From Candidatus Kaiserbacteria bacterium (GTDB lineage: Bacteria > Patescibacteriota > Minisyncoccia > Phycocordibacterales > Phycocordibacteraceae), in NCBI GenBank assembly GCA_027451665.1, contig DAIDIW010000001.1, forward strand, positions 95,359 to 159,358: a stretch of 64,000 nucleotides of DNA. The letters are read 5' to 3'. Shown piece by piece: positions 33,060 through 59,290 of this stretch. The stretch's first letter is position 1. Each line of letters begins with the position of its first letter. The notes under the pieces were generated by a model. It ran no database searches. It saw nothing but the letters and a program-made list of their open reading frames with translations, and had not been told where the DNA came from. A program made the translations under genes and the position numbers.

Positions 33060-36000
33060 ATGCTCTGGCTCTGGAATTTCTTCCTCGAGAAGCGACAGTT
33101 CAGCTATGTGCTTCTCAGTGCGCTTGTACTTGCGGGCCTCGGCGCGCTCATCGCCATACCGAAGGAGAATGCGCCCTCGATCGTCATTCCGGACGGATTC
33201 GTGATTACCACGATGCCAGGCGCTTCGGCGGCTGACATGGAGACTCTCGTGACCGACAAGCTCGAGAACCAGATCTCGGGCGTTGCCAATATCGACACGC
33301 TCACCTCGGTGTCTTCGGATGGCGTCTCGGAGATAACCGCTCAGTTCGATGCGAATGCTGACATCAATCAGTCGATACAGGACCTTCGGGATGCGGTAGC
33401 GAAGGCGGTACCGGATCTGCCCGCGGACGCGTCCGCACCGTCTGTCGAGAAGATAAATTTCAGTGATCAGCCGATCCTCGTAGCTTCGATCGCGGGCGAT
33501 CTGCCGCCCACCGAGTTTTCTGCGCTCGGGAAGCAGCTCTCCGATACGCTCACGAGCATCACCGGCGTCTCGCAGGTTTCGGTTGCCGGCGTGCCGCCTG
33601 AGGAGGTCGATGTCATCGTGAAGAAGGAAGCGCTCGCCCAGTATGGGATCTCACTCGCGCAAGTATTGAGCGCGATCCAGGCGTCGAATGCCGCCTTGCC
33701 GGCCGGAAGCATCACGATGAACGGCGTTCAGTACGACGTGAACTTCAAGGGCGGCATCACTCATCCATCGCAGATAGCGGATATCGCCGTGGGGCAGGTG
33801 GGCGGCGCACCGCTCTATCTGCGCGATATTGCTCAGATTTCGGACGGGCTCGCTCCGGCGACGACCTATTCCCGGCTTTCGCTCGGCGGGAAGCCGTCCG
33901 CGCAGGCAATCACGCTCACGGTCTATCGCCAGTCAGGCGCGCCGATCGCAGCAACGGCAAACGCGGTTCGACAGAAGCTGCAGTCGCTCGAGGGCACGAC
34001 GCTTAAGGGGCTCACGGTGTTCATCCCGCCCTCGACCGATCAGGGAACGCAGATCGCGCAACAGCTCGGTGATCTCGCAGACACGGGCATCGTGACCGTG
34101 CTCCTCGTGCTCCTCGTGCTTTTCATAACGATCGGTTGGCGTGAATCGCTTGTCGCGGCGCTCTCGATTCCAATCTCCTTCCTTATCGCGTTCCTCGGGC
34201 TCTATCTCACGGGGAATACGCTCAACTTCATCTCGCTCTTCGCACTCATCCTCGCGGTGGGTATCCTCGTCGATTCGGGCATCGTGGTCACCGAAGCTAT
34301 CCACGCGCGCATGCGCCTGTATCATGATCCGCTGAAAGCGGCGCAGATGGCGCTTCGCGATTATGCCTGGCCGCTCATCGCCGGAACGATGGCGACTGTC
34401 GCCGTCTTCGCCCCACTTTTCTTCATCCGCGGCATCGTCGGCAAGTTCATCGCCGGCATCCCGTATACGCTCATCTTCGTTCTCATCGCGTCCATCTTCG
34501 TGGCGCTCGGTCTCGTGCCGCTCATCGCCATCCTGCTTACGAAGCGCGGTGCGGCCTCGGATTGGGAACGCAGGCAGGAGGACTACACCGACCGTATCAC
34601 CAATTGGTATAAGCGGTTCCTCCGCAGCCTTCTCGAGAATCGCCGCGCGCAGCGGTGGTTCCTGCGGACACTCGGTATCCTGTTCGTTGTTTCGCTTGCG
34701 CTGCCGCTTACCGGTCTCGTCACCACGGTTTTCTTCCCGCAGGATAATCAGGATTACGTATACATCAATATCGAGAAACCGGTCGGCACGACGCTCGCCG
34801 AGACCGATCTCGCGGCGCGCGAAGTCGAGGAGCTGCTCTATCACGATCCGCACATTGCCTCGTTCCAGACGACTGTGGGCGAGGCGTCGGCACTCGCCGG
34901 CGGAATCCAGCCGGGCACGGGCGGCGCAACGAATGACGCAAACATAACCGTGAATCTCCCGAAGCCTCGTTCGTTCACCTCGACTCAAGTTGTGAACGAG
35001 CTCGAGAAGCGGCTTGCGGTGGTGCACGATGCACAGGTGCAGGTGTTGCAGTCGTCGAACGGTCCTCCGGGCGGCGCGCCCATTGAGATCCGGTTCGAAG
35101 GGAACAATTTGAACGACCTCATTTCTGCGGCAAATGCGGGGCGTGAGCTCCTCGCGTCGATCCCGGGGGTCACGAACATAACCTCGAGCACACAGAACAA
35201 CGGCACCGAGTTCGATCTCGCAATCGATCGTGCAAAGGCTGCGGCGCTCGGCGTCACGCCGGCCGAAGTCGCGCAGACGCTCCGCACGGCGATAAACGGA
35301 ACGAAGGCCACCACTATCACCGAACCAGGGCAGGATATCGATGTGATGGTGAAGCTGAATCTGAATCCCGCATACCTCACCCCAGACCAGACGTCGCAAA
35401 CGACGCTCGATAGCATTCAGAATCTCACAGTGCCCGGTGCGAAGGGTCCGGTGCTCCTCGGCTCGGTGCTCTCGGCGAGTCTCGGTCAGGCGAACGCGAG
35501 CATCGCGCACTACAACAAGGTGCGCGAGGAAACGGTATCTGCATATCCGGATTCGAAGACGACCGCGACGCAAGTGGTCGCGCAATTCCAGTCGCGCGTG
35601 AAGGAGCTCGGATTGCCCGCAGGCGTTACGGTCGCCTATGGTGGAGAGACGCAGAACATCAATCAGTCGTTCACCGATATGTTCGTTGCCCTCATCGCGG
35701 GACTTCTCTTCATGTTCATGATTCTCATCATCGCGTTCAACTCGTTCCGCCATACGTGGCACCTCCTCGTCATCGTGCCGCTCTCGCTGATCGGTGTCTT
35801 GGACGGCCTCGCGCTCGTGGGGCTTCCGGTATCGTTCTCTTCACTCCTCGGCGTCATCGCACTCGGCGGGGTCATCGTGAACCACGCCATCATCCTCATG
35901 GACTCGATGATCAAACATGCGAAGGAGGAGCCGGGCAAGCCGCTCATCGACGTGGTCGTCGATAGTGCCGCGACACGTTTGCGCCCCATCATCCTCACGA

Positions 36001-36167
36001 CGATTGCGACGGTCATCGGCATGGTGCCGCTTTCCTTCACGAACGCGACCTGGGCGCCCTTGGCGTACTCGATCATGTTCGGTCTCGCGTTCGCGATTGT
36101 GCTCACGCTCGCGCTCGTTCCCGTCCTCTTCTTCCGCTCGCCGCATCCGGAACGCGCGCAAGGGTAG
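33060..36167 (+). CDS. RND family efflux transporter permease (AcrB/MMPL-like)
   Basis: 1035 aa with a 12-TM architecture and two large periplasmic loops. It lies directly downstream of the adaptor. Confidence 0.85.
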   Translation: MLWLWNFFLEKRQFSYVLLSALVLAGLGALIAIPKENAPSIVIPDGFVITTMPGASAADMETLVTDKLENQISGVANIDTLTSVSSDGVSEITAQFDANADINQSIQDLRDAVAKAVPDLPADASAPSVEKINFSDQPILVASIAGDLPPTEFSALGKQLSDTLTSITGVSQVSVAGVPPEEVDVIVKKEALAQYGISLAQVLSAIQASNAALPAGSITMNGVQYDVNFKGGITHPSQIADIAVGQVGGAPLYLRDIAQISDGLAPATTYSRLSLGGKPSAQAITLTVYRQSGAPIAATANAVRQKLQSLEGTTLKGLTVFIPPSTDQGTQIAQQLGDLADTGIVTVLLVLLVLFITIGWRESLVAALSIPISFLIAFLGLYLTGNTLNFISLFALILAVGILVDSGIVVTEAIHARMRLYHDPLKAAQMALRDYAWPLIAGTMATVAVFAPLFFIRGIVGKFIAGIPYTLIFVLIASIFVALGLVPLIAILLTKRGAASDWERRQEDYTDRITNWYKRFLRSLLENRRAQRWFLRTLGILFVVSLALPLTGLVTTVFFPQDNQDYVYINIEKPVGTTLAETDLAAREVEELLYHDPHIASFQTTVGEASALAGGIQPGTGGATNDANITVNLPKPRSFTSTQVVNELEKRLAVVHDAQVQVLQSSNGPPGGAPIEIRFEGNNLNDLISAANAGRELLASIPGVTNITSSTQNNGTEFDLAIDRAKAAALGVTPAEVAQTLRTAINGTKATTITEPGQDIDVMVKLNLNPAYLTPDQTSQTTLDSIQNLTVPGAKGPVLLGSVLSASLGQANASIAHYNKVREETVSAYPDSKTTATQVVAQFQSRVKELGLPAGVTVAYGGETQNINQSFTDMFVALIAGLLFMFMILIIAFNSFRHTWHLLVIVPLSLIGVLDGLALVGLPVSFSSLLGVIALGGVIVNHAIILMDSMIKHAKEEPGKPLIDVVVDSAATRLRPIILTTIATVIGMVPLSFTNATWAPLAYSIMFGLAFAIVLTLALVPVLFFRSPHPERAQG

Positions 36168-37855: not shown

Positions 37856-38920
37856 ATGTCATTCTTGGGTAACTTTTTTAAGAAAAAGAGTGGAAGCGTG
37901 CTCGGTGTCGACATCGGTTCGTCCTCGCTCAAGGTGGTGCAGCTGAAGAAGGAGCACGGCAAGGCCGTTCTCGAGACGTACGGCGAGCTCGCGCTTGGAC
38001 CGTATGCGGGTGAGGAGGTGGGTCAGGCGACGAATCTCGCGCCGGAGCAGATTGCGGAGACCTTGCGTGATCTCATGCGTGAAGCGAAGGTCACGACGAA
38101 AGAGGCGGGCGTCTCGATACCGTTCGCGCGCTCCTTGCTCACGCTCGTCACGCTCCCGTATCGCGAAAACCCTAAGGAACAGCGCACCGTCATCGAGCTC
38201 GAAGCCCGCAAGTACGTCCCAGTCCCGATAAGCGAAGTACAGCTCGACTGGTTCGTCGTCCCGGACTCTGGCACCTCTGATGGGGCACAGAAGAAACATG
38301 TCGAAGTGCTGCTTGTCGCCGTCCATAATGATGAGCTTAAATTCCTCCAGAACGTAGTGAGCGGCGCCAAGCTGGCAGCCTCTTTCTATGAAATCGAGAT
38401 ATTCAGTACCATCCGCGCGGTTGTGAACGAGCCCGTGAAGCCTGTCATGGTGCTTGATATCGGCGCAACAACGACGAAAGCGTACGTCGTTGAGCGCGGC
38501 GTGGTCGCGCTTTCGCATGCCATTGCGTCGGGAAGTCAGGACATCACGAGGGCGATTGCCGCGTCGAAAAACCTCACGCTCTCTCGCGCAGAAGCTTTGA
38601 AGAAAGAACAAGGTCTCGTGGGCGGCGACGCGAGCACGCCGGAGACGGTGTTCTCCAGGATCTTCTCAGAAGCTCGGCGCGTACTCATGCAGTATGAGAC
38701 GGCGCATGGCAAGGCGGTCACCACAATCGTGCTCACGGGCGGCGGCGGCGTCACAAAGGAGCTTCGCGCGTACGCGAAACAGTTCTTCTCGATAGATGTA
38801 CAGATCGCGGATCCGTTCGCAAAGACTGAAGCGCCCGCATTCATGCGGCCGGTCCTCGAGGAGATCGGGCCGGAGTTCGCGGTCGCCGTCGGCATTGCCC
38901 TTCGGAAACTCGAAAGCTAA
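37856..38920 (+). CDS. pilM: Type IV pilus assembly protein PilM (actin-like ATPase)
   Basis: VLGVDIGSSSLKVVQLKKEHGKAVLETYGE is the PilM/FtsA-like N-terminus. 354 aa. First gene of the pilus cluster. Confidence 0.8.
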   Translation: MSFLGNFFKKKSGSVLGVDIGSSSLKVVQLKKEHGKAVLETYGELALGPYAGEEVGQATNLAPEQIAETLRDLMREAKVTTKEAGVSIPFARSLLTLVTLPYRENPKEQRTVIELEARKYVPVPISEVQLDWFVVPDSGTSDGAQKKHVEVLLVAVHNDELKFLQNVVSGAKLAASFYEIEIFSTIRAVVNEPVKPVMVLDIGATTTKAYVVERGVVALSHAIASGSQDITRAIAASKNLTLSRAEALKKEQGLVGGDASTPETVFSRIFSEARRVLMQYETAHGKAVTTIVLTGGGGVTKELRAYAKQFFSIDVQIADPFAKTEAPAFMRPVLEEIGPEFAVAVGIALRKLES

Positions 38921-39008
38921 CAACGATAGATCTGCGCGCCGTTTGTCCCCACAACGCGCGCGCACGCGCCGCGGTCTTGCAGCCGCAGGAGGTATACTTC
39001 GGGTACGC

Positions 39009-39677
39009 ATGGCGCTTCCTCCGACCATACCGACTTCCTTCGTACCGCATCCGGGTGGCGCGACACCGAAGCGCTACCGCGCCGATTTCACAGGCGCGTT
39101 CGCGTTTTTCGCGTACGGCGTACTCGGTATAGTCGTGATTCTCGCGCTTGGCGTGTTCTTCTACGGACGTATCCTCGCATCTGAACAAGCGGCGAAGGAC
39201 GCAGCTCTACAGAAGGCCGAGTCGAGCATAAATCCTCAGACCGTTACCGAATTCGTCCGCCTGCGCGACCGGCTCTCTGCGAGCAAGCAGCTCCTCGATG
39301 CGCATGTCGCTTTTTCGCAGTTCTTCACGACCCTTGAGCAGATCCTCCCCGCGAGCGTACAGTTCGATGATCTTGAGGTCTCGATCGGCCATGGCGGCAC
39401 GCCGACGCTCAAAGGTACGGGAACGGCGAAGAATTTCAATGCGCTTGCGGCAGCGTCGAACTCGTTTGCGCAGAACGGCACCATAAAGGATGCGATTTTC
39501 TCAAACATAAAGATAAATCAGGATGGTACCGTCGCCTTCGCCATCTCGGCGACGCTTGATCCGAAGGTCATCGCCTATGCGCCGACCGCACTTGCTTCGG
39601 CTTCCACGACGCCTACGGCCGGCAGCACGGGATCGACCGTCGCGTCTTCCTCTTCGGCAACTAGTACTGCACCATGA
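39009..39677 (+). CDS. pilN: PilN-like pilus assembly protein
   Basis: A single TM (FAFFAYGVLGIVVILALGVFFYG) is followed by a periplasmic domain. The position after pilM supports the call. Confidence 0.5.
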   Translation: MALPPTIPTSFVPHPGGATPKRYRADFTGAFAFFAYGVLGIVVILALGVFFYGRILASEQAAKDAALQKAESSINPQTVTEFVRLRDRLSASKQLLDAHVAFSQFFTTLEQILPASVQFDDLEVSIGHGGTPTLKGTGTAKNFNALAAASNSFAQNGTIKDAIFSNIKINQDGTVAFAISATLDPKVIAYAPTALASASTTPTAGSTGSTVASSSSATSTAP

Positions 39678-40264
39678 ACAGCCGCATCCTGCCCATCCTC
39701 GCGCTCTTAATCTCCATAGGCATCTTCTTTGCGTATATAAATCCGACATGGAACGGCTCGATTGCGTCGGCGAAAGCGGCTATCAGCGCTGACAGCCAAG
39801 CGCTTGCTTCCGCGGACACTTTCACGAAAACGGAGAATCAGCTCGCGTCTGAGCAAGCCAGTATGAGTTCGTCAGACTTAAACCAGCTTGCGGCCATGGT
39901 TCCTGATTCGGTGGACAATGTCGGGATCATCCTCGATCTAAACGCGCTGGCTGCGCGGACCGGTCTTTCGCTCTCGAATATCGACATTGCCCAGAATTCG
40001 AACCAATCGAATGGCCAGACTACGACGCAAACGACGTCCGCTACGCCGACCAACGTCACGGGGGGAGCTGCAAGTAGCGAAGGCCCCGTCGGGAACGTTG
40101 ATCTCTCGCTTAGCGCAATCGGTACGTATGCTTCGCTTAAGCAGTTCCTCGTCGGTATCGAGCACAGTCAACGTCTCCTTGATGTGCGCGATCTCTCGAT
40201 CAAGAGTTCGAAGACGGGCGTCTATAACTACCAGATGACCATTCGGCTCTACTGGCTACGCTAA
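39674..40264 (+). CDS. pilO: PilO-like pilus assembly protein
   Basis: N-terminal TM (ILPILALLISIGIFFAY) and a coiled-coil. It is translationally coupled to the previous gene. Confidence 0.45.
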   Translation: MNSRILPILALLISIGIFFAYINPTWNGSIASAKAAISADSQALASADTFTKTENQLASEQASMSSSDLNQLAAMVPDSVDNVGIILDLNALAARTGLSLSNIDIAQNSNQSNGQTTTQTTSATPTNVTGGAASSEGPVGNVDLSLSAIGTYASLKQFLVGIEHSQRLLDVRDLSIKSSKTGVYNYQMTIRLYWLR

Positions 40265-40273
40265 TACCATGTC

Positions 40274-40576
40274 GTGTCTTACCCTATGAAAATGACCTCT
40301 AACACCACGATGCTTATAGTCGCGACGATACTCGTGCTTGCCGGCGGGTACTGGTTCTTTTTCAGCGGAAATAGCGGCAACCAGGTCCCGCTTATGATAA
40401 ACGCGACGCAGAGTGCTGCCGAAACCCGTTTTCAGGCGCTCGTGGGGCAGCTCTCACTGATAACGTTCGATACGAGCATCTTCTCCGATTCGCGTTTCAA
40501 GTCGCTCGTCGATATTTCGACGCCCGTGCAACCGGAATCTCTCGGCCGTCTCGATCCATTCGCGCCGCTCCACTAA
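40274..40576 (+). CDS. Small single-TM protein in the pilus cluster (possible PilP-like)
   Basis: The TM is LIVATILVLAGGYWFFF. Assigned by position only. Confidence 0.35.
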   Translation: MSYPMKMTSNTTMLIVATILVLAGGYWFFFSGNSGNQVPLMINATQSAAETRFQALVGQLSLITFDTSIFSDSRFKSLVDISTPVQPESLGRLDPFAPLH

Positions 40577-40739
40577 CGCGCCGCGCGCTTGTGTACAATG
40601 TGCGTCTTCGCTTATCGCATTCGGGTATACTTTGAATACGAATGGATTCCTTTCGCGCGAGCAGCTACCGTCGAGCGCCTGCAGCCGCAGGAGCTCCGGT
40701 AGGCGCTCGCCTAACTAACGCGGGATCGACCCGCCCCCG

Positions 40740-42566
40740 GTGCGCGCGAACGACATGAACCTGCTTGATCTGCTGCAGGATAAAGGCATGTTGTCGCCTC
40801 AGGATAGGGCGGCGGTCGAATCCGCATTAGCGAAGAAGACGCCGATTGACCAGGCTCTTTCTGAGCACGGGATTTCATACGAGGAAGCGTTAAACGTCGC
40901 CGGCTCAAAATACGGATTGCCGACGCGCCTGCTCGAGGACCCTCCCGCGGAACAAACAGCGCTCTCCTATATCCCGGTCGATTCAGCCAAGCATTACGGG
41001 TTTGTTCCGCTTTCGGTTAAGGACGGAGCGCTCGAAGTCGGCATCGTCGATCCCGACAACATCGAGGCCATGGATGCGCTCTCCTTCATCTCCGGCCGTA
41101 TCGGCATGCCCTATAAGATCTTTCTTATCGGCAAGCCCGATTTCGATCGCGTGCTCGCTTCATACGAGAATCTGACGGGCGAGGTCGGCGAGGCGCTTTC
41201 CGAGATCGATAAGACATCTGCGGCATCGAAACCTCAAGCGGCCCCGCGCAGCAAGAGCGCGGAGGCTCCCGGACCCGCTTCGAACGAGGAGGGGGAAGCG
41301 CTCGATCTTGCCGGCCCTTCCGAGACGTTGCGCGCCGACGCCCCCGTGACGAAGATCGTCTCTATCATTCTGCGGTACGCGATTGAAGGGAAGGCTTCCG
41401 ACGTGCACGTTGAACCGTCGCCGACGAAGACTCGCGTGCGTTTCCGCATGGACGGCGAGCTTCACACCTCGCTCGAACTGCCAAACAAGGTGCACGATGC
41501 GGTCGTCGCGCGCATCAAGATCCTTGCGAAGCTACGGCTCGATGAGAAGCGCAAGCCGCAAGACGGCCGTTTCTCCGCGACCGTTGATAATCGACGCATC
41601 GATTTCCGCGTATCGACCTTTCCGACGGAATACGGCGAGAAGGTGGTGATGCGCATACTCGACCAGTCTGCGGCGACTGCCACGCTCACCTCGATCGGGC
41701 TTGACGAGGAGCAGCTCGCGGCCATCCGCGAGATGATGCAGGCGCCGTACGGGATCATTCTTATCGCCGGTCCCACCGGTTCGGGTAAATCGACGACTCT
41801 CTTCACGATGCTCTCCGAACTCGACCGCGAGACGCAGAACGTCGTTTCGCTCGAAGATCCGATCGAGTATCAGATTCCCGGCGTCGCGCAAAGCCAGGTG
41901 CGACCCGAGATCGGCTATACGTTCGCGAACGGTCTCCGTTCCATCCTGCGTCAGGACCCCGATGTGATCATGGTGGGAGAGATACGCGACAAGGAGACGG
42001 CGGCGCTCGCTATCCAGGCGGCGCTCACCGGCCATCTTGTGTTTTCGACCATCCACACGAATACCGCTGCCGGCGCGATACCGCGTTTGGTCGACATGGG
42101 TGTAGACCCTTTCCTCATCGCACCGACCTTGGTTGCCGTCATTGGCCAGCGTCTCGTGCGCCGGTTATGCGAGGGAGCCGGGGATTCCTTCCCGGTATCC
42201 GATTCCCTGAAACAGTTGCTCGAACGCGAATTCGCGGATCTTCCTGCCGCATATCGCAACAAGCTGCCGCCCTTCAAGCAGTTCTATCACGCGAAGCCAA
42301 CGGCTGAGTGCCCGAACGGTACCCGCGGACGTCTCGGCGTATTCGAGATACTTCGCATGCAGAAATCGCTTGAACAAGTGATCCTCAAGGAGCCGGTCGA
42401 AGAGAAAGTCTATGCTGCGGCGCGCGGAGCGGGAATGCTTACCATGCGCGAAGATGCCATCGTGAAGGCTTTGAAGGGCGAGATCCCCTTTGAAGAGGTA
42501 AATACGCTCGGCGGAGAGCTTTTCTCAGCGTTTGAAAGCGAAGAAAACGAGAGCAGTCAGGCCTAG
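40740..42566 (+). CDS. pilB: Type IV pilus assembly ATPase PilB (GspE family) with N-terminal GSPII domain
   Basis: Walker A ILIAGPTGSGKSTTL. Asp box and His box are present. The 4-Cys zinc motif is replaced (CEGAGD...C). 608 aa. Confidence 0.9.
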   Translation: MRANDMNLLDLLQDKGMLSPQDRAAVESALAKKTPIDQALSEHGISYEEALNVAGSKYGLPTRLLEDPPAEQTALSYIPVDSAKHYGFVPLSVKDGALEVGIVDPDNIEAMDALSFISGRIGMPYKIFLIGKPDFDRVLASYENLTGEVGEALSEIDKTSAASKPQAAPRSKSAEAPGPASNEEGEALDLAGPSETLRADAPVTKIVSIILRYAIEGKASDVHVEPSPTKTRVRFRMDGELHTSLELPNKVHDAVVARIKILAKLRLDEKRKPQDGRFSATVDNRRIDFRVSTFPTEYGEKVVMRILDQSAATATLTSIGLDEEQLAAIREMMQAPYGIILIAGPTGSGKSTTLFTMLSELDRETQNVVSLEDPIEYQIPGVAQSQVRPEIGYTFANGLRSILRQDPDVIMVGEIRDKETAALAIQAALTGHLVFSTIHTNTAAGAIPRLVDMGVDPFLIAPTLVAVIGQRLVRRLCEGAGDSFPVSDSLKQLLEREFADLPAAYRNKLPPFKQFYHAKPTAECPNGTRGRLGVFEILRMQKSLEQVILKEPVEEKVYAAARGAGMLTMREDAIVKALKGEIPFEEVNTLGGELFSAFESEENESSQA

Positions 42567-42639
42567 GGAGCCCTCTTGTCCCCACGGTAGGGGACAAGAG
42601 GGCTCGTGAGAGTCCGGCGTGCGCGGTAGACTGAATCAT

Positions 42640-43059
42640 ATGGCTTACCGCATCTTTCTTACGGATGACGACCGCTTCCTCCTCGACCTGTATGCCGTGA
42701 AATTCAAGAATGCCGGGCATGACGTAAGCACCTACGGCGGCGGCGAAGAGCTCCTTGCGGCGTTGCGCAAAGGCGGACCTTCGCCTGACGCGATCCTCCT
42801 CGATGTCATTATGCCGGGGCAGGACGGGTTCGAGGTGCTCGGCACGATCCGTAAAGAAGGGCTCGCAAAAGACTCGAAGATTATCATCCTCTCCAATCAG
42901 GGGCAGGATGCTGACATTGAGAAGGCGAAGGAGCTGCACGCAGACGGCTACATCATTAAAGCTTCGGCGATACCCTCCGAGGTGCTTGCGGAAACTATCC
43001 GTACCATCGAGTCTGCTACCGCAAATCCGGCCCTCGGCTCGAGCGCTGTCCGCACATGA
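42640..43059 (+). CDS. Stand-alone response-regulator receiver domain (CheY-like)
   Basis: Phospho-acceptor context AILLDVIMPGQDGFEVL and acidic pocket LTDDD. About 140 aa with no output domain. It sits between pilB and pilT. Confidence 0.75.
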   Translation: MAYRIFLTDDDRFLLDLYAVKFKNAGHDVSTYGGGEELLAALRKGGPSPDAILLDVIMPGQDGFEVLGTIRKEGLAKDSKIIILSNQGQDADIEKAKELHADGYIIKASAIPSEVLAETIRTIESATANPALGSSAVRT

Positions 43060-44114
43060 CCGCCGATAAGACGCTTTCCGAACTCCTCGATATCGTTATC
43101 GCGCAAGGCGGGAGCGATCTCCATATCTACGCCGGCGGACCGCCGATGATACGCATCTCCGGTTCTCTCGTGGCGATCGATCGATACAAGGCATTCACCC
43201 CCGAAGAGACCGAGCGCATGCTCGAGTCCGTCGTGCGTACGGAACGGTGGCAGACATTTCTCGATACCCAGACGATCGACGTTGCGTACGCGCACGGAGG
43301 CGTGCGCTTCCGCATAAACGGCTATCGCGTGCAGGGGGCGACCGCGATGGCGCTGCGGCTCATCCCGGACAAGATCCGCACCTTCAATGAATTGAACCTT
43401 CCGTCCACGCTTGAGGTATTCACGCAGCGCGAGCAGGGATTCTTCCTCGTCGTCGGTCCCGTGGGGCAGGGGAAGTCGACGACGCTCGCGGCGATGATCG
43501 ACCGCATCAATGAGAGCCGTGCGGATCACATTCTTACGATCGAAGATCCGGTTGAGTACATTTTTACCGAAAAGAAAGCGCTCATACACCAGCGAGAGGT
43601 TCACATCGATGTACCCGATTTCCACACCGCGCTTCAAAGCGCTTTCCGTGAGGATGTGGACGTCATCATGGTGGGCGAGATGCGCAATTACGAGACGATA
43701 TCCTCGGCGGTAACGGCCGCGGAGACGGGACATCTCGTCTTTTCGACGCTTCATACGAACAATGCCGCCCAGACGATCGACCGCGTGATCGATATGTTCC
43801 CGGCCGAACAGCAAGGCCAGGTGCGCGTGCAGCTCGCCGGTTCTCTGGTAGGCATCTTCTCGCAGCGTCTCATTCCGCGCATATCGGGCGGACTCATCCC
43901 GGCGTACGAACTGCTCATAAACAACAATGCGGTCTCGACGTTGATCCGGGACGGCCGTACGCACGAAATCGGCGCGGTTATACAGACCAGCTCACAGGAA
44001 GGCATGATCGATATGGATCGCGCGCTCGCGGAGCTCGTCCGGCGCGGAGAAGTTACGGTCGAGCATGCCTACCAGCACGCGATAGATCCGAAGACCTTCG
44101 AACGCTACTTATAA
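43056..44114 (+). CDS. pilT: Twitching-motility ATPase PilT
   Basis: ASDLHITAG-like GGSDLHIYAGGPPMIRISG, Walker A GPVGQGKSTTLAAMI and ILTIEDPVEY. 352 aa. Confidence 0.9.
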   Translation: MTADKTLSELLDIVIAQGGSDLHIYAGGPPMIRISGSLVAIDRYKAFTPEETERMLESVVRTERWQTFLDTQTIDVAYAHGGVRFRINGYRVQGATAMALRLIPDKIRTFNELNLPSTLEVFTQREQGFFLVVGPVGQGKSTTLAAMIDRINESRADHILTIEDPVEYIFTEKKALIHQREVHIDVPDFHTALQSAFREDVDVIMVGEMRNYETISSAVTAAETGHLVFSTLHTNNAAQTIDRVIDMFPAEQQGQVRVQLAGSLVGIFSQRLIPRISGGLIPAYELLINNNAVSTLIRDGRTHEIGAVIQTSSQEGMIDMDRALAELVRRGEVTVEHAYQHAIDPKTFERYL

Positions 44115-44153
44115 TGATGAGCTATCCTGCGCGCATCGCACCCGACCATTCGT

Positions 44154-45359
44154 ATGTTGTTTAAGTACCACGCGATAGATCAGGACTCCCATGAGAGAGA
44201 AGGGACCATAGAGGCGCCCTCTCAGGAAGTGGCGATCGCGGCGCTGCAGCGTCGGAATCTCATCATTTCTTCTATCCAATCGAACGAAGAGAAAGGGCTA
44301 CTCGAGATGGAGATACCGCTCTTCAATCGCGTCTCAAATAAGGAGATCGTCATTCTTTCAAGACAGATCGCGACTCTGTTCGAGGCGCAGGTGTCCGCGC
44401 TCCGTATCTTCCGCCTGTTGGCCGCAGAGGTTGATAATAAGCGTCTCGCGCAAGTGCTCTCCACGGTCGCCGACGATTTGCAGGGCGGTTCGCCCATATC
44501 GAAAGCGCTGAGCCGGCATCCGAAGGTCTTCTCGAATTTCTACGTGAATATGGTTCGGGCGGGTGAAGAATCTGGAAAGCTCTCGGAGACTTTCGGCTAT
44601 CTCGCGGACTACCTGGATCGCAGCTACGACGTGGTGTCTAAGGCAGAGAATGCGCTCATTTACCCGATCTTCGTTATCGCTGTGTTCTTCGGCGTCATGG
44701 CGCTCATGCTCACGCTCGTCATTCCGAAGATAAGTGCCGTGCTCCTCGACTCGGGCGCAAAGGTGCCGGTCTACACGCGCATCGTCATCGGGTTCTCTAA
44801 CTTCCTCGTGAACTACGGCATTTTCATTCTGATCGCACTCATCGCGGGCGGCATCTATCTCTGGCAGCTCCGCAAGACCGAAGCGGGGAAACTCGTACTC
44901 GACGGGCTCAAACTCTCCGTCCCCTACGTAGGAGACCTTTACTCAAAGCTCTACCTTTCGCGCATCGCGGACAACTTCTCGACCATGCTCCTCTCGGGCG
45001 TCTCGGTCGTCGAGGCGCTCGATATTACCGCATCGGTCGTCGAGAACGCCGCCTACGAGCAGGTGCTCCATGAGGTCGGTGCTGACGTGAAGGGGGGCTC
45101 CTCCATTTCCGACGCCATGGCAAAGCACCCGCAGATACCTGGGATCATGGTGGCGATGGTGAAAGTCGGCGAGGAGACAGGCGAACTCGGTAAAATCCTC
45201 ACGACGCTTGCGAGATTCTACAATCGTGAAGTCACGAATGCGGTCGACACGCTGGTCGGGCTCATTGAGCCGATAATGATTGTGCTCCTTGGTCTCGGCG
45301 TAGGCACGCTGCTCGCTGCCGTGCTTCTGCCTATCTACAATCTTGCGGGCGCGATATGA
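44154..45359 (+). CDS. pilC: Type IV pilus platform protein PilC (GspF family)
   Basis: 401 aa. Two repeated GspF domains, each with three TM segments. Confidence 0.85.
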   Translation: MLFKYHAIDQDSHEREGTIEAPSQEVAIAALQRRNLIISSIQSNEEKGLLEMEIPLFNRVSNKEIVILSRQIATLFEAQVSALRIFRLLAAEVDNKRLAQVLSTVADDLQGGSPISKALSRHPKVFSNFYVNMVRAGEESGKLSETFGYLADYLDRSYDVVSKAENALIYPIFVIAVFFGVMALMLTLVIPKISAVLLDSGAKVPVYTRIVIGFSNFLVNYGIFILIALIAGGIYLWQLRKTEAGKLVLDGLKLSVPYVGDLYSKLYLSRIADNFSTMLLSGVSVVEALDITASVVENAAYEQVLHEVGADVKGGSSISDAMAKHPQIPGIMVAMVKVGEETGELGKILTTLARFYNREVTNAVDTLVGLIEPIMIVLLGLGVGTLLAAVLLPIYNLAGAI

Positions 45360-45470
45360 GTGGCACCGTATCTCGCAAAGAGGTTGCGTGTGGACTTATC
45401 CACACGCAACGATATTCATTCAACCTGCGCTGGGCGTTTAGACGTACAATTTAAGCATTAGCCGCAAATA

Positions 45471-45926
45471 TTGATTATGAAAAATGTCCGTTCAAGAGGC
45501 TTCACCCTCATCGAGCTCCTCGTCGTGATCGCCATCATCGGCATCCTCTCGGCAGTCGTGCTCGCGTCCCTGAATACGGCGCGCAGCAAGGGAAATGACG
45601 CTGCGATCCAATCGGACCTTGCGACGGTCCAAACACAGATGGAGATTTACTACGGTGACAATTCAAACAGCTACGGCACGTTAACCTGGGCAACCGGTGC
45701 CGGCTGCACGGCCGCACTCGGCGACACAACGGTACAGAGCGCACTTGCGGGTGCGGATAGCGCCAACGGGAGCGGCTCCGTTGGCTGCGCAGCTGCGGGG
45801 CAATCCTATGTCGTGGCGGCGCAGCTTGTCGCAAATCCGAGTTCTTACTGGTGCGTAGATTCGACCGGAAAGGCGGAGTCTGTAGCCGCCGCTTTCCCGG
45901 CGAGTGCCATCAGCGCGTGCCCGTAA
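45471..45926 (+). CDS. Type IV pilin (prepilin with class III signal peptide)
   Basis: MIMKNVRSRG|FTLIELLVVIAIIGILSAVVLASL gives the G-1, F+1, E+5 pattern. C-terminal Cys pair C..C. Confidence 0.8.
   Translation: MIMKNVRSRGFTLIELLVVIAIIGILSAVVLASLNTARSKGNDAAIQSDLATVQTQMEIYYGDNSNSYGTLTWATGAGCTAALGDTTVQSALAGADSANGSGSVGCAAAGQSYVVAAQLVANPSSYWCVDSTGKAESVAAAFPASAISACP
45498..45592 (+). repeat. Copy 1 of a 95-bp perfect direct repeat (pilin N-terminal helix coding segment)
   Basis: GGCTTCACCCTCATCGAG...CGCAGCAAGGG is identical to 45985-46079. Confidence 0.85.
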
Positions 45927-45960
45927 CACTTATTGGTTAAACCTTAACTTGCATTACCCT

Positions 45961-46428
45961 ATGATTACCCGTACTCGCCATAAAGGCTTCACCCTCATCG
46001 AGCTCCTCGTCGTGATCGCCATCATCGGCATCCTCTCGGCAGTCGTGCTCGCGTCCCTGAATACGGCGCGCAGCAAGGGCTCGGATGCGGCCGTACAGTC
46101 TGACCTTAAGACGGTGCAGACGCAGGCAGCAATTTATCAAAATACGAACAATAGCTACAACACGACGGGCACTGCGATCGCGGGAAATACGCTCGCTGGA
46201 TGCACCGCCTCGGGCCTGTTCTCAGACCCGACGGTCGTGAATGCGCTCACCGGAGCCAATTCGGATAACAATTCTGGCGGGATTGTGTGTAATGCGGCCT
46301 CAAACGGAAGCACCTACATGGCGGCGGCGAAGCTCGTATCGACGAGCGACTGGTTCTGTGTAGATTCGACGGGAGTGGCAACGACGACGGCTACCGCGAT
46401 GGCGGATACGGCGACGGCCTGCCCGTAA
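45961..46428 (+). CDS. Type IV pilin, second paralog
   Basis: MITRTRHKG|FTLIELLVVIAIIGILSAVVLASL. The N-terminal 32 codons are nucleotide-identical to the upstream pilin. Confidence 0.8.
   Translation: MITRTRHKGFTLIELLVVIAIIGILSAVVLASLNTARSKGSDAAVQSDLKTVQTQAAIYQNTNNSYNTTGTAIAGNTLAGCTASGLFSDPTVVNALTGANSDNNSGGIVCNAASNGSTYMAAAKLVSTSDWFCVDSTGVATTTATAMADTATACP
45985..46079 (+). repeat. Copy 2 of the 95-bp perfect direct repeat
   Basis: Identical to 45498-45592. The sequences diverge immediately downstream. Confidence 0.85.
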
Positions 46429-46446
46429 TCACTCGTAACTGTGTGA

Positions 46447-46481
46447 GCAAGGAACGCGCGCCTCGAGCGCGCGTTCCTTGC
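46447..46481. terminator. Perfect hairpin GCAAGGAACGCGCGC-CTCGA-GCGCGCGTTCCTTGC after the pilin genes
   Basis: 15-bp perfect inverted repeat with a 5-nt loop, between the pilin 2 stop and the pilD start. Confidence 0.5.
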
Positions 46482-46493
46482 TATCATGCGTCT

Positions 46494-47264
46494 ATGCCTA
46501 TCCTCGCGAGCGTCCTTCTTTTCTTTCTCGGTACGATCATCGCAAGTTTTGTGGGTGTCGTCGTCGTACGCTACGGGACGGGGCAGCCCATACTCTTCGG
46601 CCGGTCCCGCTGTGACGCGTGCGGTCGGACGCTTCCACCGCTCGCGCTCGTCCCGCTTTTCTCATATGCCTTCCGACGGGGGAGGGCAGCATGCTGCGGA
46701 GCGCATATCTCGCCATTCTCGACGTATGCGGAGCTCACGCTCGGGGCTCTCTTCGTGCTCGCAGGCGGGATGCTCGGTCCAACGATAGTCCTGGTCTGTA
46801 TGCTCGTAGCGCTCGCGGCGCTCCTCGCGATCGTCGAGTATGACCTCATGCATCAGATCATTCCGCCGCCGTTTCTCGCCATTCTTCTGCCCGCTTCCTT
46901 TGCCGTCGGGGCTCTTCGCGCGTCCTCGCTTTCATCCTTTGGCATTTCGGTAGCGGTCGCCATCGCCTTCGCGCTTTTCTTCGCGCTCCTTCATTTTTTC
47001 TCCGCCGGCAGGCTTATGGGACTCGCGGACATTCCTCTCGTGTTTAGTTTGTCGCTTCTTGCGGGTCCCGCCGCCATTCCCGGATTCGTATTCTCGTTTT
47101 GGATAGGGGCGGTTATCGGCATATTCATATTGCTGCGCAGGCCGGCCGGCTCTAGAATGGGTACAGAGGTCCCGCTGGCACCCTTCCTGGCGGCAGGCTT
47201 CCTCCTCGCTTACTTCACCGCATGGAATCCCTTCGCGCTTACGCTGCTCATTCCCTACGCGTAA
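46494..47264 (+). CDS. pilD: Prepilin peptidase PilD (A24 family)
   Basis: N-terminal Zn-finger-like CDACGRTLPPLALVPLFSYAFRRGRAACCGA followed by polytopic TM segments with catalytic Asp. Confidence 0.85.
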   Translation: MPILASVLLFFLGTIIASFVGVVVVRYGTGQPILFGRSRCDACGRTLPPLALVPLFSYAFRRGRAACCGAHISPFSTYAELTLGALFVLAGGMLGPTIVLVCMLVALAALLAIVEYDLMHQIIPPPFLAILLPASFAVGALRASSLSSFGISVAVAIAFALFFALLHFFSAGRLMGLADIPLVFSLSLLAGPAAIPGFVFSFWIGAVIGIFILLRRPAGSRMGTEVPLAPFLAAGFLLAYFTAWNPFALTLLIPYA

Positions 47265-47956
47265 CGGCGCGCCTGTTCGCGTCGAAGCGGCGCAGGAACA
47301 CGGCGGGGTTTACCCTCATTGAGCTTCTGGTCGTGCTCGCGATCATCGCGATCATTCTCGGCATCGCTTTTACGAGTCAAAGTAGTTTCAATAACACGCT
47401 CATTCTCGCAAATACCGCGTACGACGTAGGGCTTACCTTTAAGAGCGCCGAGACATACGGCATCTCGAGCCGTGGCGCAGGCGCTGATGCCTCTACCGGC
47501 TACGGCCTCCATTTCTCGGCCGGCACGACCGGCTCCTTCATCTTCTTCGCCGATTCGTACCCGCCAATCGGTTCTTCAGGGCTCTGCCATCCGCCCCCGT
47601 CAGGAGACGCGTATGCGCCGGACGCGAAGCCGGGGAACTGCACGTATGATCCTTCGAATGACGTGACCGTGAACACGTTCAATTTGAATAATGGTGTCAC
47701 GATTTCGAACTTCTGCGTGCATGACAGCACTACCGCGAGCTGGTCTTGCGCCGCCTCGAACGGTTCGACGCTCTCAAGCGCGGACGTCGTCTTTTCGAGA
47801 CCGAATCCGGATCCATTCATAAGCGCAAACGGCGGATACTCGGCGTCGTATGATGAAATGTGTCTTGCGCTCGCCTCGCCTTCAGGCGGTGCTGAACGCT
47901 TCGTCTCGATCTATCCTTCAGGCGAGATTGATCCTAATGCGACCTCCTGCCCATGA
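47222..47956 (+). CDS. Minor pilin/pseudopilin
   Basis: NTAG|FTLIELLVVLAIIAIILGIAF. The first ATG gives a 29-aa leader. Confidence 0.6.
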   Translation: MESLRAYAAHSLRVTARLFASKRRRNTAGFTLIELLVVLAIIAIILGIAFTSQSSFNNTLILANTAYDVGLTFKSAETYGISSRGAGADASTGYGLHFSAGTTGSFIFFADSYPPIGSSGLCHPPPSGDAYAPDAKPGNCTYDPSNDVTVNTFNLNNGVTISNFCVHDSTTASWSCAASNGSTLSSADVVFSRPNPDPFISANGGYSASYDEMCLALASPSGGAERFVSIYPSGEIDPNATSCP

Positions 47957-48564
47957 CCGCTATGCATGCTTCTATCAGAAGACGATCGAACTGGTCCGAT
48001 AGGATGTCCGGGATGCGTCGCGCGACGCAGCCGCGCGGCTTCACGCTCATTGAGCTCATGGTCGCTGTCGGGCTTTTCGCACTCGTGATGACCCTGGCCG
48101 CTGGCGCGTACCTCATGATGATTAATGCGAATCGGCAGGCGCAGGCGCTTGCGACCGGGATCAACAATCTCTCATTTGGGCTCGAGACCATGACGCGGGA
48201 CATACGCACGGGTACCGATTACTGCGGCGGTTCAAGCTGCCCGCCCGGGACCTTCACCTTCACGAACGTGAATGGACAGACCGTTACCTATGAGCTCGTC
48301 GAGAATGGAACCACCTGCAACGGGGCGCCGGCGGGCTATCTCGCCCGCGTGACGAGCGGCGTAACCACGCCGCTCACCGATCCTTCGGTCATGATCTCCT
48401 CACTTACTTTCACTACGTTCGGGACGGCCCCGTATTCTGTCGGGAATGACACCACGCAGGCGCGGGTTACGATGGTAGTGAACGGCTGCGTGAATGCGGG
48501 ACCCGGGAAGACCCAGAATTTCACCATCGAGACGGGGGCAACCATGCGCGGCACTGACCTATGA
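47953..48564 (+). CDS. Minor pilin/pseudopilin
   Basis: QPRG|FTLIELMVAVGLFALVMTLAAG. The ATGA overlap with the upstream stop suggests coupling. Alternative internal starts lie at 48004 and 48013. Confidence 0.6.
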   Translation: MTAMHASIRRRSNWSDRMSGMRRATQPRGFTLIELMVAVGLFALVMTLAAGAYLMMINANRQAQALATGINNLSFGLETMTRDIRTGTDYCGGSSCPPGTFTFTNVNGQTVTYELVENGTTCNGAPAGYLARVTSGVTTPLTDPSVMISSLTFTTFGTAPYSVGNDTTQARVTMVVNGCVNAGPGKTQNFTIETGATMRGTDL

Positions 48565-49198
48565 TCCCTATCACTCACAAGCGTATCTCGTACGAATCGG
48601 AGCTGCCTCGCGCTTCGCTTGAATCGCGCCGCTTGGGCCGGGGGTTCACGCTCATCGAAACACTCGTCGCGATCGCCATCGTTGCGCTTGCGGTCGTCGG
48701 ACCGCTCTACACCGCAGATCGCGCAGCGGTAGCGGCGCAGCTTTCCAATGAAGAGCTCACCGCTTCCTATCTCGCGCAAGAAGGCATTGAGTACGTCCGC
48801 GCGCTGCGCGACAACGCGTATCTGTCGACCTACAATGCCTACCGGAATACTCCGGGAGCCAATATCCCCGCGATTGCCTGGAACGCCTTCCTGAATACGA
48901 ACCCTGTTTCTTCGTGCCGTACGGGCACGTGTAGTTACGATCCAATCGCAGGGCAGCTCTCCGTGTGCACGGGTTCCTGTCAGGAGCTCTATCTTGCGGA
49001 TGGCTATTACACGACCGAGAGCGGGCTTGCGAACGCTGCTTGGACGCCGTACACCCGGTCCATTCAGGTACAGAACATCACGCCCGCACCTCCTACCGAC
49101 GCACAGGGGAACCCGGTCGATGTGCAGGCGGTGTCCACCGTAACGTGGGATTTCCACGGCACGCCGCATACCGTGAGCATCGCGGAAGATCTTACGCC

Positions 49199-49208
<10 letters not shown>
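48561..49208 (+). CDS. Minor pilin/pseudopilin
   Basis: LGRG|FTLIETLVAIAIVALAVVGPLY. ATGA overlap with the upstream stop. 28-aa leader. Confidence 0.6.
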
Positions 49209-54634: not shown

Positions 54635-54705
54635 AGCGGGGTAGAGGAGAGGTACCTCGGGAGGCTCATAACCTCCAGACGCGGGTTCGATTCCCGCCCC
54701 CGCAA
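54635..54705 (+). tRNA. tRNA-Met (anticodon CAT), possibly initiator-like
   Basis: Anticodon loop CTCATAA. T-arm GCGGG-TTCGATT-CCCGC. D-arm GAGG-AGAGGTA-CCTC with A11:U24. Acceptor AGCGGGG/CCCCGCA has an unpaired 1:72. The 4-nt variable loop and 5' end are uncertain by 1 nt. Confidence 0.7.
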
Positions 54706-54775: not shown

Positions 54776-54807
54776 CGCAAAAGCCGCCCGAAAGGGCGGC
54801 TTTTGCG
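54776..54807. terminator. Hairpin CGCAAAAGCCGCCC-GAAA-GGGCGGCTTTTGCG
   Basis: Perfect 14-bp stem with a GAAA tetraloop just inside the island left end. Confidence 0.5.
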
Positions 54808-54874
54808 TATTGGACAGATGTTGCGGGTAGTCGTATTCTGTGGTCATGCACGGGATACGCGCGTCTACAATTTT

Positions 54875-56059
54875 ATGCAGATCACGGTCAAACGAAAAAA
54901 TTCGGCCATCCTCGATGACACTGTCGTACGGGCGGTTCTCGGTATGTACCCCGAAGAGAAACTTGTCGAGCGACCCCTTTTTGAAGAAGGGCTAAGCGGT
55001 ACGCCCATTGATTTTCAGGATTTCCGCGATGAGTGCGATAAGATCCTCATCCCCTGGCAGATGTTCCTCCTAAGCAAGGTGAACCTTGCCACCGAACTCG
55101 GGCATATTGAATCACAGCGACAGAAGGTTTCCCAAAAGCTTTTTGCGAAGAGGCGAGGTAACGGTAACGTTACCTCGAAACGTATTATTGACCGTCTTAT
55201 TCGCTGTCAGAATTACGTAACTACGAATGGTACTTTCCCGAAGCATGCGTTCTCTGGCTCCTTGAATGGGATGCAGACCATAGATGCGGCTGCTCATATT
55301 GTCGCCTACTTCGGTATCGATATGAGAGTCTTTCGCAGCAAGAAAAAGGCAGAAGCTCTTTCATATCTCATCAAACGGCTAGAAGAGAACAACATCAATG
55401 TCTGCCAAGGAGTACTCACTAACAAGATTCTTCCACAGGTGGATGGAGTGCGAGAAGTATACAAAGGCACCAGCGGTTTTGCTATTAAGGACGAGAAGGT
55501 GCCGTTCGTCTTTATTCCCAGTGAAATTAATCCCAACGAGAAGGATGGGAGACAAATCTACACCTTGGTATATCTCATGACGGTAGTCGGTCTCGAACAG
55601 TACGAGTTCATCCTCAATAAGGATTTCAAGGTCAGTCTCCTTGCGTCTCGCGGTCTGCAAAAGCGGATTTACGATATTACTTCTGAATTCTTGCTCCCGA
55701 GAGCAAAGACGGAGCAGTATCGCGGAATAACGATTACGGAAACTATCCGTGACGACCTCTCGACTGCCTACAAGATAACTCCGTCGGCAGTAACGGTTAT
55801 TTTCAGAAAACGTGGCCACATCCCTGACCAGGCCGTATATGAGGCGCTCTTGCCGGATCCCCAGCCTGTTGTCTCTGATAATGGACCGCGCCGACAACCG
55901 GGCATTGAAGCGTCGGTAAGGAAGTTTAACGGCAAGCATGTCTGCGATCTTGCGAACCCAGCGATTAAGAGCCGTGCTCTATTTCCAGTCCAGGCGCAAT
56001 ATTTGCTCTTTGGTTCGGTGAACAAGAAGGGATTTAAGGACTACCAAAAAACGCTATGA
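54875..56059 (+). CDS. Hypothetical protein, island cargo gene 1 (~394 aa)
   Basis: GC is ~47%. No Walker, nuclease or other motif is recognisable by eye. A TACAAT -10-like hexamer sits at 54866 just upstream. The start is set at MQITVKR after the hairpin. Confidence 0.45.
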   Translation: MQITVKRKNSAILDDTVVRAVLGMYPEEKLVERPLFEEGLSGTPIDFQDFRDECDKILIPWQMFLLSKVNLATELGHIESQRQKVSQKLFAKRRGNGNVTSKRIIDRLIRCQNYVTTNGTFPKHAFSGSLNGMQTIDAAAHIVAYFGIDMRVFRSKKKAEALSYLIKRLEENNINVCQGVLTNKILPQVDGVREVYKGTSGFAIKDEKVPFVFIPSEINPNEKDGRQIYTLVYLMTVVGLEQYEFILNKDFKVSLLASRGLQKRIYDITSEFLLPRAKTEQYRGITITETIRDDLSTAYKITPSAVTVIFRKRGHIPDQAVYEALLPDPQPVVSDNGPRRQPGIEASVRKFNGKHVCDLANPAIKSRALFPVQAQYLLFGSVNKKGFKDYQKTL

Positions 56060-56707: not shown

Positions 56708-57871
56708 CTAAAGACCAGTTGCTACTGTACCGGCGTCTTCGTTTTCACAATCGAGTGAAATTTTCCTATCTTTCAATACTAGTCTCCCGCGCAATTGCTC
56801 AAGTAGCTCGCGCTTCTCTTCGACTGTACCAGCTTCGAGTAAGTACTTCGCGTAGCGTTTGATGTCTATGTCTTTCGGCTTCTCCCATTCTTTCACTCCA
56901 AGCACCTGCGCCTGCATGTGGTTGAAGCGGGCAATTTCCTTATCGATAATCTGTCGCGCGCCGAGCCGGTCTATCTCGATCTCGTCGATAATATTACCGA
57001 GTTGTTCGATAAGCGCATCCTCGCGGATATAGGGATTCTTGCAGCGTCTGTCCCGTGTGCGGTTGCAGACGTAATAGCGGTAGAAGACGGATTTGCCGGT
57101 GGTTCGCAGGATTTTCTCCTTTTCAAGGCAGGTGATGCCCGATCCGCATTCTCCACACGTCATCATCTTTGTGAACGCGAATCCTTGGTATTTCTTTCGA
57201 GGACTCGTCTCCTCAGTGATTTTCTTTCGCACCGCCTCGAATAGCTCTCTCGTGATGAGCGCTTCGTGCTTACCGACGTACCAGTTGCCCGACCCACGTG
57301 GGTATTCGAAGACGCCGCAGTAGAAGGGATTCTTAAGAAGTTCATACAGCGTTCCTATACTCATATCCTTGCCACTCCGCGTCTTGAATTTCACTTCTTC
57401 CTTGAGCCAGTGATACACGCGCACGCCGCTCCACTTGTCTCGACCTACTTTCTCGAAGATCATCTTCACGATAGGGGAGCGGATTGGGTCGAGCAGGTAT
57501 TCGCATTTATGATCTGATCGATTGTCGTTCAGATACCCGACCGGCGCCCAGCCGGGAAGGGTAATTAGATCTTTTGCGGGTTCAGGAGACCATGGGCATA
57601 CAAACATAAGCTGAGGTTCCCGGATGGTTATTGCTTCATTGCCACGCTGGGTACACAAGATTGCCGTAGGACGATAGGCGCAAAACGCACATGAACGCGT
57701 GCATGCCGGGCACGAAAGGGATAGCGCGAGAACGAAAGATGTGGTACAGTGGGACAATGAGAGGGCCTGACTTAGACCGCGAGCGCAGCGAGCGGAAGCA
57801 TTCCCGTGGCGAGTTTCTCGCGCTCTATAACGAGGGCCTGCCGAGCGGATTCCCGCGCGCGACCGCCGCAC
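56708..57871 (-). CDS. Large serine recombinase remnant: recombinase domain, zinc ribbon and coiled-coil only. The N-terminal catalytic resolvase domain is absent.
   Basis: APVGYLNDNR...IVKMIFEKV...YHWLKEEVKFKTRSGKDMSIGTLYELLKNPFYCGVFEY is the recombinase domain. CGECGSGITC...YYVCN is the Zn ribbon. No S-x-x-Q/R catalytic motif appears in any frame upstream. GC rises at ~57650, suggesting truncation. Confidence 0.6.
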   Translation of the reverse strand: MRRSRAGIRSAGPRYRARETRHGNASARCARGLSQALSLSHCTTSFVLALSLSCPACTRSCAFCAYRPTAILCTQRGNEAITIREPQLMFVCPWSPEPAKDLITLPGWAPVGYLNDNRSDHKCEYLLDPIRSPIVKMIFEKVGRDKWSGVRVYHWLKEEVKFKTRSGKDMSIGTLYELLKNPFYCGVFEYPRGSGNWYVGKHEALITRELFEAVRKKITEETSPRKKYQGFAFTKMMTCGECGSGITCLEKEKILRTTGKSVFYRYYVCNRTRDRRCKNPYIREDALIEQLGNIIDEIEIDRLGARQIIDKEIARFNHMQAQVLGVKEWEKPKDIDIKRYAKYLLEAGTVEEKRELLEQLRGRLVLKDRKISLDCENEDAGTVATGL

Positions 57872-59199: not shown

Positions 59200-59290
59200 C
59201 AGTGCGATGCTCGTGCATCAACTGCCCTCCCTGTAACAGGGGAGGGTTTTCATCTGGGGCAAACCCGTTGATGGTGTAATGCGTTCAGTA

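Follow-up and report, generated by a model that had tools for sequence, protein, structure and literature searches.

The stretch of DNA analysed here (hereafter the window: 64,000 nucleotides (nt) of Candidatus Kaiserbacteria bacterium, contig DAIDIW010000001.1 of assembly GCA_027451665.1, positions 95,359 to 159,358 of the forward strand) carries two tandem major type IV pilin genes, which we call p1 and p2. They lie within a complete type IV pilus cluster that, as identified with Pfam, runs on the + strand from PilM to three minor pilins (37856-49208). The first gene, p1 (45477..45926, + strand), encodes a prepilin of 149 amino acids (aa) that begins MKNVRSRG-FTLIELLVVIAIIG..., that is, with the leader MKNVRSRG and then FTLIEL; the second, p2 (45961..46428, + strand), encodes a prepilin of 155 aa with the leader MITRTRHKG, beginning MITRTRHKG-FTLIEL.... 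Both score above the Pfam cut-off for N_methyl (PF07963; E = 1e-9 for p1 and E = 3.7e-10 for p2), and both show the features of a class III signal peptide: a short basic leader, Gly(-1), Phe(+1), Glu(+5) and a hydrophobic alpha-1N. Among solved major pilins, p1 was matched by phmmer to Geobacter PilA, Thermus PilA and S. sanguinis PilE1, mainly via alpha-1. Each of the two proteins contains four cysteines and a conserved C-terminal CVDSTG...CP.

Base-by-base extension of the match between the two genes gave an exact direct repeat of 96 nt, in which 45497-45592 equals 45984-46079, both copies being on the + strand and 487 nt apart. Copy 1 (45497..45592) comprises the last leader nucleotide and the codons from Gly(-1) to Gly31, which encode the hydrophobic alpha-1 N-terminal helix; copy 2 (45984..46079) is the same block inside p2. 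Starting at the Gly(-1) codon (45498), the identical run is 95 nt long, and this is the 95-bp nucleotide-identical 5' segment that a first-pass annotation, made from the sequence alone, had reported. Over the 32-codon segment that encodes Gly(-1) followed by FTLIELLVVIAIIGILSAVVLASLNTARSKG, p1 and p2 disagree only in the final Gly codon, at its third base (GGA vs GGC). A general repeat search lists the pair as 153 nt at 86% identity, which corresponds to the 96 identical bases followed by a stretch of ~63% identity. No third copy of the block was found within the 64-kb window at up to 3 mismatches, and 100 shuffles gave no block match. There is also a second nucleotide match between p1 and p2, of 23 nt at 83%, at the C-terminal CVDSTG motif (45852-45874 / 46357-46379), which may be a second, much shorter homology island.

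To either side of the block the two genes part at once. In a codon-aligned comparison, p1 and p2 are identical at 38% of nucleotides over the 7 leader codons, at 100% of amino acids and 31 codons over the 32-codon block, and at 56% of nucleotides over the remaining 107 codons (third-position identity 0.35). The first 24 aligned codons past the block are already at 58% nucleotide identity, with a third-position identity of 0.29. The immediate divergence described in the first-pass annotation is thus found at both edges, and an equally high identity downstream, which would have spoken for a simple recent duplication, is absent. At the protein level, p1 and p2 are 52% identical beyond the block, and 56% identical over the 107 remaining codons of the codon alignment.

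Conservation of the encoded peptide does not explain this pattern. Past the block, codons for the same residue are identical between p1 and p2 in only 22 of 60 cases, and at that rate 31 identical block codons out of 31 would be expected with P about 3e-14. Furthermore, when the 32-residue peptide is the same in pilins of two different genomes, the median difference is still 18 of 96 nt (2416 pairs), and two or fewer differences are found in just 0.6% of these pairs. Because pilins with the same peptide differ this much across genomes, protein constraint and codon bias together cannot account for the nucleotide identity of the block. The same between-genome median of 18 differences led us to reject a universal synonymous constraint on the block.

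The history of the block could be followed by comparison with the closest relative, locus L001, whose PilC is 98% identical in amino acids and whose locus is ~83% identical in nucleotides. L001 carries both pilins, each 93% identical in amino acids to its window ortholog beyond the block. Within the block, the window paralogs differ from each other at 1 of 96 nt vs 3-4 of 96 to L001. In a four-way alignment, three synonymous block positions differ between the window and L001 (GCA/GCG, GCG/GCA and TCC/TCT), and at each of them the paralogs of the same genome agree. The boundary Gly codon follows orthology, being GGA in both p1 genes and GGC in both p2 genes, and so marks the 3' limit of the tract. 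When quartet sites were classified, the block gave 3 that place paralogs together vs 1 that places orthologs together; the corresponding counts downstream were 4 vs 88 over all sites (Fisher p = 0.0009 against the block) and 2 vs 16 when only codons with one residue in all four genes were considered (Fisher p = 0.024 against the block). Since block sites group by genome and body sites by orthology, the block would have been homogenised within each lineage after the window/L001 split, and the gene bodies would be older than that split. The gene conversion proposed in the first-pass annotation is well supported by this arrangement of orthologous bodies around a block whose three genome-specific synonymous states are common to both paralogs. 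Purifying selection acts on both genes: relative to L001 they keep 102 of 110 and 107 of 115 residues, yet 38-45% of same-residue codons have changed. The bodies of p1 and p2 are therefore neither decaying nor silent.

These comparisons make it very likely, in our judgement, that p1 and p2 are intact, selectively maintained paralogs whose block has been homogenised by gene conversion, giving concerted evolution of a constant 5' segment. The globular domains would have diverged long ago, while the stretch from Gly(-1) to Gly31, with its codons for the peptidase site and for the hydrophobic alpha-1 N-terminal helix of the filament core, would have been homogenised repeatedly by non-reciprocal homologous recombination between the tandem copies. 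The tracts would be short and confined to the sole stretch where purifying selection keeps enough homology; the end of the tract would coincide with the end of protein-level constraint because homology beyond it is presumably too low for strand exchange. With an identical alpha-1N, the two pilins may share PilD as their peptidase, fit one filament core and assembly machinery, and co-polymerise or stand in for one another, as S. sanguinis PilE1 and PilE2 do. The homology of the block may in addition occasionally mediate unequal crossing-over, with gain or loss of copies and formation of chimeras, and may anchor the replacement of variable domains by DNA from other strains.

We then looked at the pattern across the clade, using 160 loci fetched with PilC as anchor, of which 125 were left after de-duplication. 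These PilC relatives are metagenome-assembled genomes (MAGs) throughout, labelled Candidatus Kaiserbacteria, Paceibacterota or Parcubacteria, all belonging to the Candidate Phyla Radiation (CPR; Patescibacteria). Directly after pilC there is one major pilin gene in 51 of the 125 loci, and there are two in 66, three in 6 and four in 2. In pairs from one genome that have the block peptide in common but diverged bodies (<60% aa identity; n = 27), the median was 8 differences per 96 nt vs 18 between genomes (Mann-Whitney p = 8e-15). Two or fewer differences were seen in 10 of the 27 pairs (the window, L001, L005, L031, L033, L036, L041, L051, L058 and L158). In 19 quartets whose orthology was established from the bodies, 168 block sites were concerted, 16 orthologous and 5 of other pattern. 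The identical runs begin at, or a few bases from, the Gly codon, and their ends vary (+58, +67, +76, +85, +94, +105, +118 and +121), in the manner of sporadic conversion events. The pilin bodies are ~45-50% identical where PilC is 85% identical, showing that they evolve much faster than the machinery. As for the window's own species, exact p1 and p2 proteins were not on record in the assembly index, an exact search of metagenome contigs with the 95-nt block (four degenerate sites) gave 0 matches and a PilC-anchored metagenome scan returned nothing closer than 85% aa identity; these metagenome searches found no variants of that species, the nearest locus being L001.

The clade-wide data bear on the proposal that a single recent event, without ongoing conversion, produced the repeat, either as a partial 5' duplication or through a foreign body that replaced the 3' part of one gene. 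An identical 5' end joined to an unrelated 3' end is what such an event would leave, and allele replacement of this kind occurs in relatives. However, both bodies are already orthologous in L001, with ~40% of same-residue codons changed, yet the block is genome-specific and identical or nearly so within genomes; such an event would need to be older than the split without any divergence having accumulated afterwards. As the pattern moreover recurs independently in at least 10 genomes, we consider a single event very improbable.

Several observations weigh against recurrent gene conversion as the full account. Many relatives show no homogenisation, with 11-20 differences per 96 nt, and because of these conversion would be episodic rather than constant, with tracts that decay afterwards. 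Genome-wide shifts in codon usage may mimic part of the concerted signal in distant quartets; such an effect is visible in the downstream same-residue control, where L029/L041 gave 6 vs 0. The block has also diverged slowly between the window and L001: it kept 88-91% identical codons (window 45498-45592 and 45985-46079 vs L001 1780-1875 and 2269-2364), vs 61% for PilC and 55-62% for the pilin remainders (P = 0.0002-0.001), and this slower between-genome divergence is not predicted by neutral gene conversion. Block exchange between strains, or weak selection on the block, could possibly produce it; among other close genome pairs the reduction is inconsistent, being mostly, not always, seen. Finally, bubble-popping by assemblers could sharpen exact identity, so that it is not certain whether the true number of differences is 0 or 1-3, and the three concerted window/L001 sites, taken alone, could be open to the same effect.

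The last of these points raises the question of whether the repeat is an artefact altogether, arising from repeat collapse or consensus-smoothing in metagenome assembly. The source is apparently an uncultured CPR bacterium, the relatives are MAGs without exception, and short-read graph assemblers can pop small bubbles in repeats. However, two copies at the usual distance of 17-18 differences per 96 nt would have no long k-mers in common and could not be collapsed, so the near-identity must be real. Block-only identity is found in MAGs of several studies (contig names NODE_, k141_ and scaffold_, contigs up to 525 kb), and each copy is flanked on both sides by unique, in-frame sequence. We regard an artefact as extremely unlikely.

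The slow divergence of the block is likewise what would be seen if selection at the nucleotide level, acting on RNA structure, a translation or targeting signal or a regulatory site, fixed one block sequence: between the window and L001, synonymous divergence of the block is below that of PilC and of the pilin remainders. The GC content at third codon positions (GC3) of the block, 0.91-0.94 vs 0.66-0.73 elsewhere in the genome, points in the same direction. Against this, identical-peptide pilins of other genomes differ at the median of 18 of 96 nt already given, which amounts to near-saturated synonymous variation; block GC3 is equally raised in single-copy genomes and fits the Leu/Ile/Val composition; and the trend to reduced divergence does not hold consistently in other close pairs. 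Such selection is almost certainly not what keeps the two copies alike. GC-biased gene conversion was considered separately and rejected, the difference between block and PilC GC3 being +0.044 in multi-copy vs +0.073 in single-copy genomes.

Recombination at the block could be seen more directly in relatives. L131 and L132 have flanks that are 99.7% identical; the match runs through the leader and block to nt +94, similarity is then lost across the pilin body, and it returns past the stop codon, at a terminator hairpin that resembles the one at 46446-46482 in the window and forms the 3' junction of the swap. This pair represents a between-strain replacement of the variable domain, and L097/L098 behave in the same way. 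The single pilin gene of L002 (7337-7768; JAJYCP010000002.1, a contig at ~3x coverage) matches gene 1 of L003 and L004 in its upstream region and leader, and gene 2 in its body. L003 (7338-8256) and L004 (7018-7932) are two-gene arrays with an identical 5' segment of 179-187 nt. The L002 chimera may be a real deletion between direct repeats or, equally possible, an assembly collapse of the ~180-nt repeat. Two further features of these loci were noted. An IS200-like Y1 transposase open reading frame (Pfam Y1_Tnp, E = 9e-7) lies between pilC and the pilin at L132 5291-6004, and is also present in the L131/L143 strain group, the group in which the pilin body has been replaced as well. L112 (2366-2887) and L156 (1805-2269) are strains with 99.6% identity over the locus; they differ by an indel or duplication of 68 nt close to the 3' end of the second pilin gene, which alters the C-terminal reading frame (173 vs 154 residues).

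Such events can also be read differently, namely that selection keeps the block as the recombination handle of a system for pilin variation, serving cassette switching, shuffling or exchange, within the genome or by DNA uptake; host attachment or phage susceptibility would then change. The loss of L131/L132 similarity at +94 and its return at the terminator, with L097/L098 alike, is in keeping with this, as are the joining of an L003 gene-1 leader to a gene-2 body in L002, copy numbers from 1 to 4, globular domains far less conserved than PilC, and block synonymous divergence below that of its surroundings in window/L001. However, passive homologous recombination would in any case place junctions where a conserved segment ends, and L002 may be no more than a collapsed 180-nt repeat at 3x coverage. 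In the window, both copies are complete genes, each with its own start codon and leader and under purifying selection, and recombination between direct repeats deletes irreversibly and does not switch. We find a handle of this sort unlikely. The broader version, in which the block of Kaiserbacteria-like CPR bacteria is a selected modular handle that keeps several pilin heads compatible with one machinery and allows heads to be gained, lost or swapped, seems to us equally doubtful. It would explain why the L131/L132 junctions lie at the block edge, why copy number varies and why close genomes differ so little at synonymous sites of the block. If it were true, head cassettes would also come from DNA taken up through the pilus, resulting in retuned host attachment and escape from pilus-specific phages.

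The components of known switching devices were searched for in the window. A tblastn search with the variable domains of p1 and p2 found only p1 and p2 in the 64 kb on either strand, so no silent or truncated pilin cassettes were detected, and a regex scan of the entire window on both strands found no G-quadruplex (G4) motif. Inverted repeats in pilin coding sequences, of the Moraxella Piv/shufflon type, are not what is present here, the repeat being direct. The only recombinase found is a large serine recombinase (56708-57871, - strand; Pfam Recombinase and Zn_ribbon_recom), which lies ~10 kb from the pilins and ~2 kb past a tRNA gene (54635-54705). This gene is more likely part of an integrated element than of the pilin locus, and its region may be an integrated mobile element or a prophage remnant. 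Open reading frames lacking a Pfam match occur between the tRNA gene and the recombinase and beyond it (54803-56059 and 58645-59982). As no silent cassettes, G4 motif, inverted repeats in the pilin genes or adjacent recombinase were found in the window, there is no sign of a programmed switch. The suggestion in the first-pass annotation that the repeat is a recombination substrate for cassette shuffling therefore survives in part: relatives support the substrate indirectly, through the L131/L132 junctions, the L002 chimera and the range of 1-4 copies, and a programmed shuffling device in the window is not borne out.

The surroundings of the two pilin genes fit their assignment to a type IV pilus, all of the following genes being on the + strand and assigned with Pfam. 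PilM, PilN and PilO (37856-40264; PilM_2, PilN, PilO) are followed by PilB (40740-42566; T2SSE, a family found twice in the cluster), a stand-alone response-regulator receiver gene between pilB and pilT (42619-43059), PilT (43056-44114) and the platform protein PilC (44154..45359; T2SSF, E = 1e-58). Downstream of p2 come the prepilin peptidase PilD (46494..47264; A24_N_bact, Peptidase_A24) and the three minor pilin genes (47222-47956, 47953-48564 and 48561-49208; N_methyl, GFTLIE motifs). The GFTLIE regions of the minor pilins differ from the block in nucleotides, with no block match at up to 3 mismatches. An AcrB/RND-family transporter of 1035 aa (33060-36167; ACR_tran, E = 1e-180) is encoded ~1.7 kb upstream of the pilus cluster, the interval being occupied by genes for a tRNA and a methyladenine glycosylase, in what is apparently a reduced CPR genome. 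An Rfam scan of the window returned two tRNAs only.

Hairpins lie at both edges of the pilin pair. A terminator-like site 3' of pilC (45383..45410, + strand), the stem of which was recovered in the fold, forms the upstream edge, and a perfect 16-bp GC-rich hairpin 3' of p2 (46446..46482, + strand; 100% complementary, -36.5 kcal/mol, z = -5.95) forms the downstream edge. The 34-nt spacer between p1 and p2 (45927..45960, + strand) has no hairpin, its fold energy being no better than that of shuffles (z = 0.35), and is poorly conserved relative to L001. Because hairpins flank the pair and the spacer is unstructured, p1 and p2 probably form one co-transcribed two-gene unit inside the single pilus operon. 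A scan for sigma-70-like promoters around the pilins gave 0 sites. In the 37 nt 5' of the p1 start (45440-45476 vs L001 1722-1758) there are only 3 differences, compared with a locus mean of 83% nucleotide identity, which suggests a conserved promoter or 5' untranslated region for p1 only.

No surface organelle of CPR bacteria is better conserved than the type IV pilus. Cultivated Saccharibacteria use it to bind hosts, to compete and for twitching motility (PMC11623550). The major pilin locus in one large CPR clade is, on our results, a mosaic in which a constant 5' module kept uniform by gene conversion is combined with fast-diverging, replaceable heads in 1-4 copies, and this suggests how episymbionts may diversify their attachment surface. 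There is also a practical warning: identical repeats of 95-190 nt at the pilin locus are places where short-read MAG assemblies may collapse or mis-join. Literature searches found no account of this pattern in CPR bacteria. The mechanism is textbook and the setting, a CPR clade, is new; the case is statistically solid and will not surprise a specialist, and it refines existing knowledge without overturning it.

Altogether, the locus resembles several known systems in part. In Neisseria, the variable region of pilE is converted from promoterless, 5'-truncated silent pilS copies into one expression locus with the help of a G4 element (PMC4023411, PMC12871193). Gene conversion acts on pilin genes here too, but it is the constant region that is converted, both copies are full genes, and neither silent copies nor a G4 motif were found in the window. 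A passage in PMC2941502, citing Forslund 2006, states that in Francisella recombination between direct repeats removes a pilin gene. As at Francisella pilA, a pilin body in the window lies between two direct repeats in a tandem locus, and L002 compared with L003/L004 resembles the outcome of such a deletion. The Francisella repeats are reportedly also conserved 5' pilin-coding segments. Unlike in Francisella, no such deletion came to light in the window's own species, and L002 may be an assembly collapse. L131 and L132 recall another known arrangement, in which closely related strains have unrelated pilin bodies set between conserved flanks. Here the 5' junction can be located where the conserved N-terminal coding block ends, in these relatives and not in the window's species. 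S. sanguinis PilE1 and PilE2 are two major pilins with identical N-terminal portions that use one machinery and co-polymerise stochastically into a heteropolymeric type IV pilus (PMC10628169). The window's p1 and p2 similarly share an identical alpha-1N in one pilus locus and differ elsewhere, which by analogy would allow co-assembly; unlike PilE1 and PilE2, which are similar throughout, they diverge strongly beyond the block. Concerted evolution by gene conversion is well established in bacterial paralogs, for example the duplicated tuf genes and the rRNA operons. As in those cases, paralogs here exceed orthologs in similarity within a bounded tract, the phylogeny of the tract is discordant with that of its flanks, and synonymous sites are homogenised. 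Unlike in tuf genes and rRNA operons, it is only a constant module of 96 nt that is homogenised, and the remainder of the two genes is among the fastest-evolving sequence of the locus.

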